A stretch of 13,094 bases of DNA, from the UHGV virus genome UHGV-0365212, one strand, 5' to 3'. The notes beneath the pieces are model-generated. The model saw nothing but the letters and a program-made list of their open reading frames with translations, did not search any database and had not been told where the DNA came from. The translations under genes were made by a program, and so were the position numbers. The stretch comes from a virus. Below, in pieces: positions 250 through 11,145 of the stretch (within the stretch, counting starts at the first letter, position 1; the number at the start of each line of letters is the position of its first letter).

Positions 250-930
250 TCATCGCCATTGCTCCCCAAATACAAAACCAATTTCAGCCAGTGCCTCGTC
301 CATTTTTTCGATGAACTCCGGCACCATCTCGTTAAAACTCGCCATGTACTTTTCATCCCGCTCAACCACGACATAATGCAGTCCTTCACGCTTCATACGC
401 GGGTCATAGTTGGCAAAGTACCAGGCATCTTTTTGTGTCACCCACATGCTGTACTGCACCTGGGCCATGTAAGCCGATTTTATGGCCTCGAAACCACCGA
501 GCCGGAACTTCATGAAATCCCGGGAGGTAAACGGGCATTTCAGTTCAAGGCCGTTGCCGTCACTGCATAAACCATCGGGAGAGCAGGCGGTGCGCATACT
601 TTCGTCGCGATAGATGATCGGGGATTCAGTAACATTCACGCCGGAAGTGAACTCAAAGAGGGCTCTGGCGTCGTTCTCGTACTGTTTTCCCCAGGCCAGC
701 GCCTTAGCGTTAACTTCCGGAGCCACACCGGTGCAAACCTCGGCAAGCAGGGTGTGGAAGTAGGACATTTTCATGTCAGGCCACTTCTTTCCGGAGCGGG
801 GTTTTGCTATCACATTGTGAACTTCTGAAGCGGTGATGACGCCGAGCCGTAATTTGTGCCATGCATCATCCCCCTGTTCGACAGCTCTCACGTCGATCCC
901 GGTACGCTGCAGGATAATGTCCGGTGTCAT
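250..930 (-). CDS. exo: lambda exonuclease (Red-alpha, 5'-3' dsDNA exonuclease), 226 aa
   Basis: ORF-track translation [27 protein letters not shown]...GFVFGEQWR matches my recollection of phage lambda Exo almost residue for residue; start codon overlaps bet stop (ATGA), as in lambda. Confidence 0.95.
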
Positions 931-1712
931 GCTGCCACCTTCTGCTCAGTGGCTTTCTGTTTCAGGAATCCAAGAGCTTTCACTGCTTCGGCCTGTGTCA
1001 GTTCTGACGATGCGCGAATGTCGCGGCGAAATATCTGGGAACAGAGCGGCAATAAGTCGTCATCCCATGTTTTATCCAGGGCAATCAGCAGAGTGTTAAT
1101 CTCCTGCATGGTTTCATCGTTAACCGGAGTGATGTCGCGTTCCGGCTGACGTTCTGCAGTGTATGCGGTATTTTCGACAATGCGCTCGGCTTCATCCTTG
1201 TCATAGATACCAGCAAATCCGAAGGCCAGACGGGCACACTGAATCATGGCTTTATGCCGTAACATCCGTTTGGGATGCGACTGCCACGGTCCGGTGATTT
1301 CTCTGCCTTCGCGGGTTTTGAATGGTTCGCGGCGGCATTCATCCATCCACTCGGTAACGCAGATCGGATGATTGCGGTCTTTGCGGTAAATCCGGCATGT
1401 GCAGGATTCGTTGTCCTGTTCAAAGTCCATGCCGTCAAACTGCTGGTTTTCGTTGATGATGCGGGACCAGCCATCAACGCCCACCACCGGAACGATGCCG
1501 TTCTGCTTATCAGGGAAGGCGTAAATTTCTTTCGTCCACGGATTAAGACCGTACTGGTTGGCGACGATCAGCAATGCGATGAACTGCGCATCGCTGGCAT
1601 CACCTTTAAATGCCGTCTGGCGAAGAGTGGTGATCAGTTCCTGTGGGTCGACAGAATCCATGCCGACTCGTTCAGCCAGCTTCCCAGCCAGCGTTGCGAG
1701 TGCTGTACTCAT
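927..1712 (-). CDS. bet: lambda Beta single-strand annealing protein (Red-beta), 261 aa
   Basis: Translation [37 protein letters not shown]...KATEQKVAA matches recalled lambda Bet over its full length; sits between gam and exo on the same strand. Confidence 0.95.
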
Positions 1713-1717
1713 CCGTT

Positions 1718-2014
1718 TTATACCTCTGAATCAATATCAACCTGGTGGTGAGCAATGGTTTCAACCATGTACCGGATGTGTTCCGCCATGCGCTCCTGAA
1801 ACTCAACATCGTCATCAAATGCACGGGTAATGGCTTTTTTGCTGGCCCCGTGGCGTTGCAAATGATCGATGCATAGCGATTCAAACAGGTGCTGGGGCAG
1901 GCCTTTTTCCATGTCGTCTGCCAGTTCTGCCTCTTTCTCTTCACGGGCGATCTGCTGGTAGTGACGCGCCCAGCTCTGAGCCTCAAGACGATCCTGAATG
2001 TAATAAGCGTTCAT
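1718..2014 (-). CDS. gam: lambda Gam, RecBCD inhibitor; only the 98-aa short form (GamS) is encoded because the upstream long-form start is lost at a deletion junction
   Basis: Translation [44 protein letters not shown]...[10 protein letters not shown] matches recalled lambda Gam C-terminal 98 aa; AGGAG Shine-Dalgarno 7 nt upstream of the ATG; lambda-like 5' sequence persists only to about position 2090. Confidence 0.9.
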
Positions 2015-2350
2015 GGCTGAACTCCTGAAAATGGCTGTGAAAATATCGCCCGCGAAATGCCAGGCTGATTAGGAAAACAGGAAAGGGGATTAGTGATTGA
2101 GGCCGTTACCGCGTCCGTCGAGAAAAACTTCCACGAGCAAATCACGGGTATAAGTGCGCTCGATGCCGCGATGCAGATAAAGCCGTCCGCGTAAATTAGC
2201 TGATGCAGTCCAGGTACCGGATACTGAAAAATTACGCCAAAACGCTGACAGTAACAGGCGTATGAAGTCAGAGATAACGACCGGTTGATACCGTTTTATT
2301 GATTTTTGCTGGCAATTGTCATGCTGGTCTGATTTTTGTGGAGAAAGTTG

Positions 2351-2734
2351 ATGCGTGATATTCAGATGGTTCTTGAGCGTTGGGGGGCATGGGCGGCTAA
2401 TAACCATGAGGATGTGACCTGGTCGTCCATTGCTGCCGGTTTTAAGGGATTGCTTCCTTCAAAAGTAAAATCCCGTCCGCAATGCTGTGATGATGACGCG
2501 ATGATCGTTTGCGGGTGCATGGCCCGTCTGAAAAAGAACAACAGCGATTTGCACGATTTATTAGTGGATTATTATGTCGGCGGTATGACATTCATGTCAC
2601 TGGCAAGTAAGCATCGTTGCTCTGATGGTTATATCGGGAAAAAGTTACAGAAGGCTGAGGGAATAATTGAAGGGATGTTAATGGCATTAGATATCCGGTT
2701 AGAGATGGATATCGTTGTTAATAACTCTAATTAA
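2351..2734 (+). CDS. Q: late-gene antiterminator Q, short phage-21/DLP12 QuuD-like type (127 aa)
   Basis: ATG at 2351 preceded by GGAGA with 7-nt spacer (the ORF-track start at 2336 is a TTG); product [26 protein letters not shown]...[16 protein letters not shown] is Cys-rich and resembles the short Q family as I recall it; positioned just upstream of a porin/lysis module as in DLP12-type prophages. Confidence 0.7.
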
Positions 2735-2751
2735 TACGCCAATTATTTACT

Positions 2752-2785
2752 AAAAGTTATTAAAAATGGGGCGTTGAAACGCCCC
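2752..2785 (-). terminator. candidate intrinsic terminator for the porin gene (minus strand)
   Basis: GC-rich hairpin GGGGCG-ttgaaa-CGCCCC at 2768-2785; on the minus strand it is followed by a U-rich tract (AUUUUUAAUAACUUUUA); about 140 nt downstream of the porin stop. Confidence 0.45.
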
Positions 2786-2873
2786 CAAAAATAAAGGGTA
2801 ATATATAACAGAAGGTTTGTATAGTTAGAAGCAAGGTTGTGCTTCTAAAGGAAGTGGCTTGAGGGAGCCACTT

Positions 2874-2915
2874 ATATGTTGGGGAGGCAAAGCCTCCCAC
2901 AACATATCTTTTAGT
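2874..2915 (+). terminator. long imperfect hairpin followed by CUUUU; candidate terminator downstream of Q (tR'-like?)
   Basis: About 15-bp stem ATATGTTGGGGAGGC / GCCTCCC(A)CAACATAT with one bulge and AAA loop, then CTTTTAG on the plus strand. Confidence 0.4.
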
Positions 2916-2922
2916 AATCAAA

Positions 2923-4005
2923 TTAGAACTGGTAAACCATACCTACAGCAACGATATCATCGGTAGCAACGCCAGATGCTTTCGTGAAATCGCTCTTATC
3001 AATCAGGTTGATTTTGTAGTCAACAAAAGTGGACATATTTTTGTTGAAGTAATAGGTTGCACCTACATCAACATATTCAACCAGGTCCTGATCACCCCAA
3101 ACACCCAAGTCTTTTCCTTTAGAATGCAGGTAAGCAACGGATGGACGCAGGCCGAAGTCGAACTGATATTGTGCAACAGCTTCGAAGTTTTGTGCTTTGT
3201 TGGCAATATGGTTATTACCAAAAACAGTCATGTTCTGGGTTTCAGAATAGGTGGTGGCCAGATAGATGTTGTTCGCATCATATTTCAGACCAGCTGCCCA
3301 TACTTCAGCATTTTGACCAGAAGCATTCAGACCGTTGTTACCGTAGATAACCTGATTATTAGTGCGATCAGATTTAGCATAGGTTGCACCCACGCCGAAT
3401 CCTTCATACTCATAAGTAGTTGAGAAACCGAAACCATCGCCATTAGCTTCAGTTACTTCTTTTCGGTCATTTTTGCCCTGATACTGAGCTGCAAAGTTCA
3501 GGCCATCAACCAGACCAAAGAAGTCGTTGTTACGATAAGTTGCAACACCTGTGGTGCGACCAGTCATGAATACATCTGTTTGGGTCCAGGTATCGCCACC
3601 GAATTCTGGCAGAACGTCGGTCCATGCACCAATATCGTATGCTACACCGTAGTTACGGCCATAATCGATGGAGCCGTAGTCACCGAATTTCAGGCCAGCG
3701 AAGGCAAGACGGGTTTTATCTTTGGAGGAACCTTGAGATTCAGCGCGGTTGCCTTTGAATTCATATTCCCACTGACCGAAACCAGTCAGTTGATCGTTGA
3801 TTTGGGTTTCACCTTTGAAGCCAAGACGGGCATAAGTAGTATCACCATCATCTGCATCATTAGAGGAGAAGTAGTGCTTAGCATTAACTTTCCCGTACAG
3901 ATCCAGCTTGTTACTGTCTTTATTATAAATTTCAGCTGCCTGAGCAGACATCGCCATCAGTACTGATGCAGCTACAGCAGAAATTGCCACTGTTAATTTT
4001 TTCAT
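2923..4005 (-). CDS. nmpC: prophage-encoded OmpC/OmpF-family general porin (NmpC/Lc-like), 360 aa with signal peptide
   Basis: Translation starts [30 protein letters not shown] (signal peptide) and ends ...VGMVYQF (C-terminal Phe typical of porin beta-barrels); alternating Tyr/Gly-rich strands; AAGGG RBS; sits between Q and the holin on the opposite strand as nmpC/lc does in DLP12/PA-2-type prophages (from memory). Confidence 0.88.
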
Positions 4006-5951: not shown

Positions 5952-6440
5952 ATGAACCAATTAGAAGAAAAGCTTCAAAGAATGATTTCCTTATACAAGG
6001 AAGATAACTGCCAAAAAGTTCCTGAAAACATCGCAGAGTTAATGGAATTGGCAAGTGAATTTTCTGGCATGCTTAAGTCGTCAGGTGTTCGGTCAGCGTT
6101 CTTTGTTGAAATGCTGATGCACGGCGGACTTATGGCAACAATGAGACGTGTAATGGAAGACCAGAGAAAAGAACCTCCTCAGGTATACGTTTTGTCATCG
6201 AAGAAAACTGGGCTAACCAAAATTGGGTATTCATCCAACATTCCACAACGCATCAAATCGCTTGGCAACTCTGGACCAGACTGCTTGAAGCTTGAGTGCC
6301 TGATCCCTGGTGGAAGAGAAACTGAAAACATGCTTCATCGCAAATTTGCCGCAAAGAGAAAGCACGGTGAATGGTTCGCCCTGTCCAAGGATGACATTGA
6401 GGGATTGAAATCTGTAGCGATTACTTCTGATGGCTATTAA
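5952..6440 (+). CDS. T5orf172/MUG113-domain (GIY-YIG-like fold) protein with an uncharacterised ~75-aa N-terminal region; moron between Rz and cos
   Basis: C-terminal half PQVYVLSSKKTGLTKIGYSSNIPQRIKSLGN...ETENMLHRKFAAKRKHGEWFALSKDDI fits the T5orf172 pattern (hydrophobic-YVL, KIGxT/S, R, E..LH..F, GEWF); ATG 5952 preferred over in-frame GTG 5916; AT-rich relative to flanking phage genes; has its own upstream gap after a terminator. Confidence 0.6.
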   Translation: MNQLEEKLQRMISLYKEDNCQKVPENIAELMELASEFSGMLKSSGVRSAFFVEMLMHGGLMATMRRVMEDQRKEPPQVYVLSSKKTGLTKIGYSSNIPQRIKSLGNSGPDCLKLECLIPGGRETENMLHRKFAAKRKHGEWFALSKDDIEGLKSVAITSDGY

Positions 6441-6826: not shown

Positions 6827-7118
6827 TGCCATCACAAAAGCCATTCCCTACAGAGTGGCTTTGATAATGGCTTATACCCTACACGGGATAACTTAACTGA
6901 TATCCCTTTTAAAGGATAAAGGTATTCAAGCCTGACACATCATGCGCTGTATCGTCGCCGTATTCCCGTATTAACAGAGACCGTAGCCCGACGGGGAACT
7001 CCTTCTGCGCGAGTGTGCGGGAATAATCAAAAACGATGCACACCGGGGTTACCGGGTACACATATTTCATCATGCCAGCGAGTCCGGTTCTGGCACGGAA
7101 GAAACCGGACGTTATGAT

Positions 7119-7529
7119 TTAGTGCGGAAATATTTGTGTAGTGTTCTGAATGTTCTCAGTAAAGAGTAATGAATTATCAAAGGTATAGTAATACCTTTTG
7201 TTTTCGTGGATATTTGTAATCCATCTGAAAACCCCTGCTGTAGCAAGATTTTTCCTGTATTCGTAAAATGATAACTCTCCTGATTTGAATCCTTTTAATG
7301 TGGCTTCTATAAGGCATTTATTTTTTGAAAATCTTACATTTACAACCTTACCCTGTCCTTTTATTAAAACCGTATTATCGTTTTCAAGAACAAGATGAAT
7401 ATTCTCTGTGGCTAAATAGTAAATGTAATGTGAGACATTGTGACGTTTTAGTTCAGAATAAAACCAGTGATAGTTTAAATTATTTCGCACTTTATCGAAT
7501 ATTTGTTTAAAAATGGCAACCTGAGCCAT
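7119..7529 (-). CDS. DUF1398-like small protein (YbcV / lambda right-arm orf family), 136 aa; AT-rich moron
   Basis: Start assigned to the second in-frame ATG (7529-7527) because GGAAGG lies 7 nt upstream; product [55 protein letters not shown]...; position between the lysis cassette and cos on the minus strand matches ybcV in DLP12 (from memory); roughly one-third G+C by eye. Confidence 0.55.
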
Positions 7530-7533
7530 TGTA

Positions 7534-7559
7534 GTACCTTCCATGTGATATGAAGGTAC
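7534..7559 (-). promoter_or_regulatory. perfect 8-bp inverted repeat (GTACCTTC / GAAGGTAC, 10-nt spacer) overlapping the RBS and first ATG of the DUF1398 gene; possible translational-control hairpin or operator
   Basis: Read directly from the sequence at 7534-7541 and 7552-7559; in the minus-strand mRNA the GGAAGG Shine-Dalgarno would pair with the upstream arm. Confidence 0.35.
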
Positions 7560-7586
7560 CTAGTCTGCACGATTATCTAAATTGCT

Positions 7587-7820
7587 TCAATCTGGTCTGA
7601 CCTGCTTTCTGAGCAATTCAGTAATGTCACTCTTTTCTTTGTTTGCTTCAGGCGAAACTCTTTTTTCTGAGCACAGTCTTCGGCGGCAGGCTTCAATGAC
7701 CCAGGCTGAGAAATTCCCGGACCCTTTTTGATCAAGAGCGATGTTAATTTGTTCAATCATTTGGTTAGGAAAGCGGATGTTGCGGGTTGTTGTTCTGCGG
7801 GTTCTGTTCTTCGTTGACAT
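7587..7820 (-). CDS. small basic protein, YlcI / lambda orf-64-like (DUF3950-type), 77 aa
   Basis: MSTKNRTRRTTTRNIRFPNQMIEQINIALDQKGSGNFSAWVIEACRRRL... resembles the small ORF found just upstream of cos in lambda and DLP12 (ylcI), recalled from memory. Confidence 0.55.
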   Translation of the reverse strand: MSTKNRTRRTTTRNIRFPNQMIEQINIALDQKGSGNFSAWVIEACRRRLCSEKRVSPEANKEKSDITELLRKQVRPD

Positions 7821-8019
7821 GAGGTTGTCCCGTATTCAGTGTCGCTGATTTGTATTGTCTGAAGTTGTTTTTACGTTAAGTTGATGCAGATCAATTAATA
7901 TGATACCTGCGTCATAATTGATTATTTGACGTGGTTTGATGGCGTAGATGCACGTTGTGACATGCAGATGATAATTATTATCATTTTGCGGGTCCTTTCC
8001 GGCGATCCGACAGGTTACG

Positions 8020-8208
8020 GGGCGGCGACCTCGCGGGTTTTCGCTATTTATGAAAATTTTCCGGTTTAAGGTGTTTCCGTTCTTCTTCGTCGTAACTTAA
8101 TGTTTTTATTTAAAATACCCCCTGAAAAGAAAGGAAACGACAGGTGCTGAAAACGGGCTTTTTGGCCTCTGTCGTTTCCTTTCTCTGTTTTTGTCCGTGG
8201 AATGAACA
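8020..8208 (+). other. cos: lambda cohesive-end site: cosN (GGGCGGCGACCT at 8020-8031) followed by the cosB region up to the Nu1 start
   Basis: Sequence ...GACAGGTTACG|GGGCGGCGACCTCGCGGGTTTTCGCTATTTATGAAAATTTTCCGGTTTAAGG... matches the lambda right-end/left-end junction as I recall it, with only scattered substitutions through to the ATG of Nu1. Confidence 0.85.
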
Positions 8209-11145
8209 ATGGAAGTCAACAAAAAGCAGCTGGCTGACATTTTCGGTGCGAGTATCCGTACCATTCAGAACTGGCAGGAGGCTCAGATTGCGTCCATCAG
8301 CCAGAGTGTGGCGCGTTTCTCCTCTGCATCCGGCGTGGAGGTGGACAAGGTCGCTGAAGCCTTCGGGAAGCTGACCACAGAGGGGAATACCAATATCTCC
8401 GGTGTCACGGTGGTGTTCCGGGCCGGTGAGCAGGAGCAGACACCGCCGGAGGGATTTGAATCCTCTGGCTCCGAGACGGTGCTGGGTACGGAAGTGAAAT
8501 ACGACACGCCGATCACCCGGACCATCACGTCGGCAAACATTGACCGTCTGCGTTTTACTTTCGGCGTGCAGGCACTGGTGGAAACCACCTCAAAGGGGGA
8601 CAGGAATCCATCGGAAGTCCGCCTGCTGGTTCAGATACAACGTAACGGTGGCTGGGTGACGGAAAAAGACATCACCATTAAGGGCAAAACCACCTCACAG
8701 TATCTGGCCTCGGTTGTGGTGGATAACCTGCCGCCGCGCCCGTTTAATATCCGGATGCGCAGGATGACGCCGGACAGCACCACAGACCAGCTGCAGAACA
8801 AAACGCTCTGGTCGTCATACACCGAAATTATCGATGTGAAACAGTGCTACCCGAACACGGCACTGGTCGGCGTGCAGGTGGACTCGGAGCAGTTCGGCAG
8901 CCAGCAGGTGAGCCGTAATTATCATCTGCGCGGGCGTATTCTGCAGGTGCCGTCGAATTATAACCCGCAGACGCGGCAATACAGCGGTATCTGGGACGGA
9001 ACGTTTAAACCGGCATACAGCAACAACATGGCCTGGTGTCTGTGGGATATGCTGACCCATCCGCGCTACGGCATGGGGAAACGTCTTGGTGCAGCGGATG
9101 TGGATAAATGGGCGCTGTATGTCATCGGCCAGTACTGCGACCAGTCAGTGCCGGACGGCTTTGGCGGCACGGAACCGCGTATCACCTGTAATGCGTACCT
9201 GACCACACAGCGCAAGGCGTGGGATGTGCTCAGTGATTTCTGCTCGGCGATGCGCTGTATGCCGGTATGGAACGGGCAGACGCTGACGTTCGTGCAGGAC
9301 CGGCCGTCGGATAAGGTGTGGACCTATAACCGCAGTAATGTGGTGATGCCGGATGATGGCGCGCCGTTCCGCTACAGTTTCAGCGCCCTGAAGGACCGCC
9401 ATAATGCCGTTGAGGTGAACTGGATTGACCCGAACAACGGCTGGGAGACGGCGACAGAGCTTGTTGAAGATACGCAGGCCATTGCCCGTTACGGTCGTAA
9501 TGTCACGAAGATGGATGCCTTTGGTTGTACCAGTCGGGGGCAGGCACACCGCGCCGGGCTGTGGCTGATTAAAACGGAACTGCTGGAAACGCAGACCGTG
9601 GACTTCAGCGTGGGTGCTGAAGGGCTTCGCCATGTACCGGGCGATGTCATTGAAATTTGCGATGATGACTATGCCGGTATCAGCATCGGCGGGCGCGTGC
9701 TGGCGGTGAACAGCCAGACCCGGACGCTGACGCTCGACCGTGAAATCACGCTGCCATCTTCCGGCACCACGCTGATAAGCCTGGTTGACGGGCAGGGGAG
9801 TCCGGTCAGCGTGGAGGTCCAGTCCGTCACCGACGGCGTGAAGGTGAAAGTGAGCCGTGTTCCTGACGGCGTTGCAGAATACAGCGTGTGGGGGCTGAAG
9901 CTGCCGACGCTGCGCCAGCGCCTGTTCCGCTGCGTGAGTATCCGTGAGAACGATGACGGCACGTATGCCATCACCGCCGTGCAGCACCTGACTGCCGAAG
10001 TCACCGCAGACAGCGGGGAGTATCAGGTACTGGCCCGCTGGGACACGCCGAAGGTGGTGAAGGGCGTGAGCTTTATGCTTCGCCTGACCGTGGCCGCGGA
10101 TGAAGGCATTGAGCGGCTGGTCAGCACGGCCCGGACGGCGGAAACCACATACCGCTTCACGCAACTGGCGCTGGGGAACTACAGGCTGACAGTCCGGGCA
10201 GTAAATGCCCGGGGACAGCAGGGAGACCCGGCGTCGGTATCGTTCCGGATTGCCGCCCCGGCAGCGCCGTCGCGGATTGAGCTGACACCGGGCTATTTTC
10301 AGATAACCGCCACGCCGCATCTTGCGGTTTATGATCCGACGGTACAGTTTGAGTTCTGGTTCTCGGAAAAGCGGATTGCGGATATCAGGCAGGTTGAAAC
10401 CACAGCCCGCTATCTTGGTACGGCGCTGTACTGGATAGCCGCCAGTATCAATATCAAACCGGGCCATGATTATTACTTTTATATCCGCAGTGTGAACACC
10501 GTTGGCAAATCGGCATTCGTGGAGGCCGTCGGTCGGGCGAGCGATGATGCGGAAGGTTACCTGGATTTTTTCAAAGGCAAGATATTTTCCCTGACATCAG
10601 ACGGAAAGCTGACCGCTAAAAATGCGGATATCAGTGGCAGTGTGAATGCGAACTCAGGGACGCTCAACAATGTCACGATTAATGAGAACTGTCAGATTAA
10701 GGGGAAACTGTCAGCCAACCAGATTGAAGGTGATATTGTCAAAACGGTCAGCAAGTCTTTCCCCCGCACGAACAGTTATGCCAGTGGCACCATCACGGTA
10801 AGAATCAGTGATGATCAGAAATTTGACCGGCAGGTCATGATACCGCCAGTGTTATTCCGCGGTGGTAAGCATGAGAATTTCAACAGTAATAACCAACAGT
10901 CATACTGGTATTCAACCTGCCGGTTAAGAGTGACCCGCAATGGTCAGGAGATTTTTAATCAGTCCACGACGGATGCTCAGGGCGTATTTTCCTCCGTTAT
11001 AGATATGCCTGCCGGACAGGGGACGCTGACACTGACATTCACCGTATCTTCATCAGGAGCGAATAACTGGACACCAACAACCAGTATCAGCGATCTGCTG
11101 GTTGTGGTGATGAAAAAATCCACAGCAGGTATCAGTATCAGCTGA
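8209..11145 (+). CDS. J: in-frame fusion ORF (978 aa): Nu1 residues 1-24, then a ~33-aa segment resembling tape-measure protein H, then tail-tip/host-specificity protein J from about residue 56 to the end; deletion remnant rather than an intact structural gene
   Basis: N-terminus [24 protein letters not shown] equals recalled lambda Nu1; [33 protein letters not shown] matches a motif I recall from lambda gpH; from [26 protein letters not shown] onward the protein tracks lambda J for about 800 residues, with a divergent C-terminal ~230 aa; junctions at about nt 8280 and 8379. Confidence 0.8.

Follow-up and report, generated by a model that had tools for sequence, protein, structure and literature searches.

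Hairpins that bury the Shine-Dalgarno (SD) sequence are the closest described counterparts of the structure analyzed here. In the work of de Smit and van Duin on the MS2 coat-gene initiation hairpin, initiation reportedly falls as the stability of the hairpin at the ribosome-binding site (RBS) rises. The present locus likewise has a short stable stem, which pairs an upstream, anti-SD-like pyrimidine stretch (ACCUUC) with the SD (GAAGGU) and whose predicted stability clearly exceeds the range in which initiation drops; here, the occlusion is predicted and belongs to a minority allele rather than being a fixed feature of the gene. RNA thermometers of the ROSE and fourU types similarly carry the SD in the 3' arm of a 5'-leader hairpin, whereas our locus exhibits a perfect 9-bp stem devoid of destabilising mismatches and matches no Rfam family. 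The lambda S gene has a dual-start motif with the sdi stem-loop at its initiation region. As in S, the gene under study is lambdoid and bears close in-frame starts with a stem-loop at the initiation region; in contrast to S, its upstream ATG does not keep its frame among homologues, the hidden SD is that of the downstream start, and the structure is not conserved. Finally, inverted repeats can be changed by the quasipalindrome template-switch mechanism, which is established in E. coli (PMC7202029), and a model in which template switching makes inverted repeats perfect has been put forward for proteobacteria (PMC5941160). The quasipalindrome hot spots of the E. coli thyA and lacZ reporters (PMC7202029) resemble our site in the clustering of changes in one arm and in the near-identical flanks; they differ in that one of the four changes observed here (position 7560) is untemplated under the inverted model, and in that our event is reconstructed from natural alleles.

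The locus lies in a stretch of 13,094 nt, hereafter the window, and centers on the leader of a gene that the first-pass annotation had described as DUF1398-like. The product indeed belongs to Pfam PF07166 (E = 3e-43), is 100% identical to WP_000079508.1, as annotated at the matching locus in E. coli L73, and is approximately 76% identical to lambda p78 and to YbcV of DLP12, being related as well to YdfO of Qin (PDB 2HH8, E = 2.9e-67). Around its start, a perfect 8-bp inverted repeat with a 10-nt spacer holding the first in-frame ATG had been reported, and each of these elements was recovered: the arms GTACCTTC (7534-7541) and GAAGGTAC (7552-7559) are 100% complementary, the spacer (catgtgatat, 7542-7551 on the + strand) contains the ATG at 7544-7542, and the + strand across the site reads cattgtaGTACCTTCcatgtgatatGAAGGTACctag. 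On the minus-strand RNA, the order is GGUACCUUC (7560 to 7552), AUAUCACAUG, GAAGGUACU (7541 to 7533), ACAA and the second AUG (7529-7527), and the stem gains a ninth pair, G7560.U7533, to reach 9 bp (eight Watson-Crick pairs and one G.U). The SD GGAAGG runs from 7542 to 7537 of this RNA, 7 nt 5' of the second ATG. Its bases GAAGG (7541-7537) are paired in the 3' arm, and its first G, which doubles as the G of the upstream ATG, is the last base of the loop, so that the earlier description of a base-paired SD for the second ATG is accurate, with five of the six bases in the stem.

Table 1. Coordinates of the main features at and around the DUF1398 leader in the window
Feature	Position	Strand	Remarks
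DUF1398 gene	7119..7529	-	136 aa; ybcV / ydfO / lambda p78 family; start codon 7529-7527
Second small hairpin	7512..7530	-	AAUGGC/GCCAUU, 6 bp, 7-nt loop; encloses the DUF1398 start codon
3' arm of mRNA hairpin	7533..7541	-	GAAGGUACU; holds 5/6 bases of the SD GGAAGG
Hairpin loop	7542..7551	-	AUAUCACAUG, 10 nt; last 3 bases are the upstream ATG (7544-7542)
5' arm of mRNA hairpin	7552..7560	-	GGUACCUUC; occupies the hypervariable C-rich tract
YlcI/YnfO-family gene	7587..7820	-	DUF3950, 77 aa; upstream of the DUF1398 gene, same strand
Palindrome GGTCTGACC (GGTCAGACC on -)	7594..7602		3' end of the ynfO-like gene; matches PdhR SELEX sites
cosN	8020-8031		lambda cohesive-end sequence GGGCGGCGACCT

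RNA folding, which had been suggested as a check, returned the 9-bp hairpin with a minimum free energy of -11.9 kcal/mol for a 37-nt piece (ViennaRNA; z = -3.3), a value equalled by none of 200 shuffles. According to this prediction, the hairpin of the window allele is stable and sequesters the SD of the true start, the second ATG. Perfect 8-bp inverted repeats with loops of 3-20 nt number 16 in the real 13-kb window versus 4.0 +/- 2.5 in its dinucleotide shuffles, from which the chance expectation was taken; since shuffled windows also hold such repeats, one repeat alone is not beyond chance, and the hairpin is notable only for its position on the RBS. The second small hairpin (Table 1) derives from an AATGGC/GCCATT repeat that is present in most alleles, including the lambda type and the window type, and absent from the ydfO type. 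Its wide occurrence is explained by the fact that the sequence codes for M-A-Q-V-A-I; 94.7% of its alignment cells are paired, and compensatory changes are absent. Another perfect 8-bp repeat, GTCCGGTT/AACCGGAC, with a 13-nt loop and lacking a U-run, was observed at 7082-7110, 9 nt past the DUF1398 stop codon on the minus strand.

The window allele offers two in-frame ATGs 15 nt apart, and the listed ORF (7119..7544, minus strand, 141 aa) begins at the first of them, in the spacer, with the second at 7529-7527. This upstream ATG has no SD of its own. Additionally, an extra T between both ATGs places the first one out of frame in lambda and in ybcV; hence the five-residue MEGxx extension is not a conserved product. 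RefSeq begins the CDS of these genes at the second ATG (136 aa), a choice that is, on sequence grounds, the correct one, and the first ATG used by several annotations and by the PDB construct is not a conserved start. Annotation of the start is inconsistent across the family: the product measures 136 aa in RefSeq, several phage records list 141 aa, and the lambda entry (lambdap78) has 177 aa. The alignment of the PDB 2HH8 construct begins at residue 6 of that construct, consistent with initiation at the first ATG. It was also observed that PHROGs (PHROG 413) and RefSeq phage records call the DUF1398 protein a 'head protein', a label that looks doubtful given that the place and orientation of the gene resemble those of the moron gene bor.

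A tblastn search against 50,697 phage records recovered 43 homologues, all with at least 71% identity and nearly all from E. coli lambdoid phages, and none below 71% identity was found among these records, which leaves no more distant phage leaders for comparison. Among the loci collected, those of the lambda type also occur in assemblies filed under Pseudomonas, Kitasatospora, Brevibacillus, Flavobacterium and other names, where the contigs measure either about 48.4 kb or about 3.5 kb; these look like lambda control-DNA contamination. An E. coli-type gene with 100% identity was likewise seen on a contig of a 'Candidatus Nanosynbacter' metagenome-assembled genome.

Conservation of the palindrome upstream of DUF1398 homologues in other prophages, which the first-pass annotation had put forward as a check of its proposal, was not borne out; such a lack of conservation in homologous loci is among the outcomes that it had named as counting against its reading. 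In most homologous loci, the tract reads CGCCCC(C)TC or CGCGCCCTC, versus GGTACCTTC in the window. The place of the 5' arm is taken by CGCCCCCTC in K-12 ydfO and by CGCGCCCTC in K-12 ybcV and lambda, and the hairpin is not formed in the leaders of K-12 ydfO and ybcV (z = +0.6 and +0.1, respectively). The perfect allele was found in none of the six sequenced phages inspected (lambda, Tritos, PhiR49_1, Kati, Chlobot and ev099), four of which encode an identical DUF1398 protein; the palindrome is hence absent from lambda, ybcV, ydfO and five other phages, all of which have the C-rich tract at this place and do not form the hairpin. Across 80 IMG/VR loci whose protein is 99-100% identical, the 3' arm is constant and the 5' arm is polymorphic, with the alleles CGCCCCTC, CGCCCCCTC, CACCCCTC, GGTACCCTC, GGTACCTTC, CGCCCCATC and CCCCCC(C)TC.

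The census pointed in the same direction. In an unbiased IMG/VR scan whose sole anchors were the loop, the SD and the start, the perfect allele accounted for 5 of 120 loci (4%) among the matches listed, and the one-mismatch allele also for five, the respective counts within the clade that bears the window-type right arm being 10 and 8 of 119. Exact 54-nt allele matches against complete E. coli genomes placed the perfect allele in 133 records, corresponding to 134 of 5,426 genomes (2.5%), with the alleles CGCCCCCTC, CGCCCCTC and GGTACCCTC counted 1137, 539 and 44 times, respectively. At least eight alleles coexist at this hypervariable spot, most of them adding no pairing. When 19 distinct leaders were aligned, four of the nine pairs were unpaired in at least 13 of the 19 alleles, no pair was altered on both sides, and the consensus fold reached only -1.6 kcal/mol. 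Rfam returned no match at gathering thresholds for the whole window, nor at E <= 1 for positions 7300-7900. Together, the rarity of the allele, the lack of covariation and the lack of an Rfam family indicate that the palindrome is not a conserved element of DUF1398 leaders.

Comparison of the alleles also enabled the reconstruction of how the window sequence may have arisen. The C-rich state is common to all outgroup clades (ydfO type and lambda type) and can be taken as ancestral, and the single flanking haplotype shared by all GGTACC alleles argues for a single origin. Within this GGTACC lineage, GGTACCCTC and GGTACCTTC both occur, even on the same flank haplotype, which makes the palindrome-completing C-to-T change a second step. 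The changes are strongly clustered: the window and the nearest CGCCCCCTC allele differ in 4 of 750 flanking bases (~99.5% identity) versus 4 of 9 positions in the arm, and 5 of the 19 polymorphic columns of a 500-nt alignment (counted when three or more of 47 loci had the minor allele) sit in a 7-nt stretch at this very spot. Pairing with the other arm rises from 5/8 in CGCCCCCTC to 7/8 in GGTACCCTC and 8/8 in GGTACCTTC, and each of the four derived changes pairs a formerly unpaired position, three by Watson-Crick pairs and one by G.U; because the site was picked as a perfect palindrome, this argument from all four changes is subject to ascertainment bias.

The ancestral state is an imperfect inverted repeat, CGCCCCCTC...GAAGGTAC, with five of eight positions paired, which in one lineage was perfected by a clustered change of CGCCC to GGTAC followed by C to T. 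The neighboring SD arm could have served as the template for the new arm, by a switch of the quasipalindrome kind. Three of the four new bases match the complement of the opposite arm, whereas the C-to-G change at 7560, where A would be expected, does not and fits only a direct-repeat reading or a G.U pair in RNA. GTAC being self-complementary, the derived AGGTAC equally reproduces the right arm in direct orientation. A templated, template-switch origin of the allele is plausible, this being the kind of pattern that correction of quasipalindromes by template switching yields (PMC7202029; model in PMC5941160). Further variants found at this position (CACCCCTC, CGCCCCATC, CCCCCCCTC and the C4-C7 length classes) add no pairing, which indicates that the hot spot is not generally hairpin-directed.

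The predicted consequences for translation were evaluated as the cost of opening the SD, computed from the partition function of a 130-nt leader with the SD forced open. At 37 C, this cost amounts to 8.7 kcal/mol for the window allele, 7.0 kcal/mol for GGTACCCTC and 3.3-4.5 kcal/mol for five other alleles. For the window allele, it varies little with temperature (9.1 kcal/mol at 25 C and 8.0 kcal/mol at 50 C), and the predicted probability of an unpaired SD stays at or below about 1e-6 across 25-42 C. Among 12 genes of the window, the DUF1398 gene ranks at the top for the opening cost of the ribosome footprint (17.2 kcal/mol), and the holin gene exhibits the highest cost for the SD region. The tract of the window allele would thereby act as a strong anti-SD, the 9-bp hairpin burying GAAGG. 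In view of the inverse relation between stability and initiation, the window allele should translate DUF1398 substantially less than the common alleles do, and a cost that moves from 3.3 to 8.7 kcal/mol and remains flat between 25 and 50 C suggests constitutively lower translation rather than a switch. The folding model therefore predicts reduced DUF1398 translation, with initiation that would be constitutively lower than with the common alleles.

The genomic neighborhood of the hairpin is that of a lambdoid right end. A distance of 57 nt separates the stop codon of the YlcI/YnfO-family gene from the DUF1398 start, and 26 nt separate it from the hairpin. The pair formed by both genes occupies the extreme right end of the lambdoid genome, adjoining cos and running against late transcription, as bor does. 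Between cosN and the ynfO-like start, two further palindromes were noted, ATCAATTA/TAATTGAT at 7890-7897 / 7915-7922 and ATGATAATAATTATCAT at about 7960-7985, in the region (7890-7985) that must hold the ynfO-DUF1398 promoter. A simple consensus scan of positions 7000-8300 found no sigma-70-like promoter on the minus strand.

Judging from its gene content, the window represents a cryptic prophage that has undergone heavy deletion. A YqaJ-like exonuclease, RecT and a Kil-like ORF directly adjoin a porin gene (2923-4005, minus strand) within 250-4005, with no immunity, replication or Q genes between the recombination/Kil-like genes and the porin gene, and this junction is a second large deletion or a mosaic joint. 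Lysis genes come next, then a GIY-YIG gene and then an ORF of 978 aa (8209-11145, plus strand), whose residues 1-29 match Nu1, the terminase small subunit, and whose remainder consists of tail-tip protein J domains. This Nu1'-'J fusion implies a deletion that took out the whole head and most tail genes, and not one of the retrieved GGTACC loci matches the window past about 8250, the site of the fusion. Among complete E. coli genomes, likewise, none contains 80% or more of the window at a single location. The GIY-YIG / T5orf172-domain gene (5952-6440, plus strand) is located between Rz and the DUF1398 gene, which is the bor slot in lambda and DLP12, and weakly matches PDC-S57, one of the candidate defence families of PADLOC (E = 8e-6). 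For DUF1398/YnfO, an anti-phage defence role was considered and dropped, PADLOC having returned no match.

On balance, the palindrome is probably a rare, lineage-specific, recently derived, SD-occluding allele of a hypervariable C-rich tract, and neither a conserved switch nor an operator. It might instead be a neutral chance polymorphism at a mutational hot spot, generated by C-run slippage and substitutions and having no meaningful effect on expression or fitness. Such an origin would suit the roughly four perfect 8-bp repeats expected per shuffled window, the coexistence of eight or more alleles mostly lacking added pairing, the absence of covariation and the residence of the allele in a heavily deleted cryptic prophage. 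However, four of the four derived changes create pairs, and a stem of -11.9 kcal/mol over the SD far exceeds the stability at which initiation reportedly falls in the experiments of de Smit and van Duin; a stem so stable can hardly leave translation unaffected, provided that transcription of the gene takes place. We therefore regard neutrality as a rather unlikely account, if one deserving of attention. Much less credible is a regulated translational switch, opened by temperature, by an RNA or protein acting in trans, or by ribosomes ending the upstream ynfO-like gene. What the first-pass annotation had called an architecture for structure-gated translation survives as the SD-sequestering geometry of the window allele, and falls short in conservation, compensatory change and temperature response. 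The transcript levels of K-12 ydfO and ybcV are strongly condition-dependent, with a 116-fold response to ionic liquid by qPCR (PMC4077768) and 10-fold lower ybcV mRNA in a pdhR deletion of K-12 (PMC7660256), so the locus is regulated at some level; yet more than 90% of homologous loci lack the hairpin, including these regulated K-12 genes, predicted SD accessibility is near constant from 25 to 50 C, and Rfam gives no match even at E <= 1. An RNA thermometer was rejected on the predicted temperature profile, which shows no melting at 30-42 C, and translational coupling on geometry, as the spacer measures 57 nt and the stem starts 26 nt past the upstream stop, out of the reach of a terminating ribosome. 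In the literature on ydfO, ybcV, ynfO, ylcI and lambdap78, no translational control of these genes was found. Nor is the hairpin a terminator, since no U-run follows the stem (which continues into CUACAAUGG), and a terminator scan also left it unreported.

The perfect symmetry of the arms had likewise suggested a palindromic DNA operator, on which a dimeric protein, either of the YlcI/YnfO family or PdhR, would bind two 8-bp half-sites. A small YlcI/YnfO-family (DUF3950) protein is encoded directly upstream, its DNA binding being a guess. The half-site on the 5' side of the mRNA, however, is replaced by the C-rich tract in most loci, including homologues that keep the same neighbor gene, the half-site centers are 18 bp apart and so not on the same helix face, and the site falls inside the transcribed ynfO-DUF1398 spacer and not at a promoter recognised by the simple consensus scan. 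This lack of conservation and this location make an operator role unlikely, indeed barely credible in our estimate. PdhR SELEX sites have been reported in K-12 beside ybcV (ybcV/ybcW) and within ynfO-ydfO (PMC7660256), and the published bound sequence is another palindrome, GGTCAGACC, which maps to the 3' end of the ynfO-like gene (Table 1) and varies in some phages (GGTTAGACC, GATCAGACC); the hairpin repeat was accordingly discarded as the PdhR operator. Equally hard to credit is a start-site selector resembling lambda S sdi, in which the structure would hide the SD of the second ATG and show the first one in the loop, yielding the 141-aa form. The stem-loop does lie between two in-frame ATGs 15 nt apart, several phage annotations begin at the first of them, and the PDB construct aligns from residue 6, but that ATG has no SD, is out of frame in lambda and ybcV, and the hairpin itself is allele-specific.

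A broader extension of the SD-occluding allele would treat the C-rich tract 5' of the DUF1398 SD as an evolvable anti-SD 'tuning knob' that templated mutation, of the quasipalindrome or short-repeat type, would have repeatedly remodelled in lambdoid prophages, which we consider improbable, although not to the degree of the switch or the operator. As a separate observation, loci of a lambda-like sub-clade carry the variants CGCGCCATC, CGCGCTATC and CGCGTCATC at the same spot, and these strengthen, step by step, a hairpin about 30 nt upstream of the SD that forms with the upstream ACGATAATGC. The outer stem of this hairpin grows from 5 to 6 bp and the inner stem from 3 to 4 bp, the outer stem of lambda having only 4 bp. 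If the tuning-knob idea were true, the window lineage would pair the SD and lower expression, the sub-clade variants would free the SD, and the natural alleles would span graded expression states of a moron gene.

As for the derived SD-occluding allele itself, the site illustrates neatly, in natural sequences, how an imperfect inverted repeat becomes perfect through clustered changes, which is of relevance to template-switch mutagenesis. For regulation in general it carries little weight, being at most a naturally occurring variant that keeps a prophage gene with no assigned function at low expression. The alleles GGTACCTTC, GGTACCCTC and CGCCCCCTC, which precede an identical protein, nevertheless constitute a natural experiment on RBS occlusion of a lambda-type moron gene.
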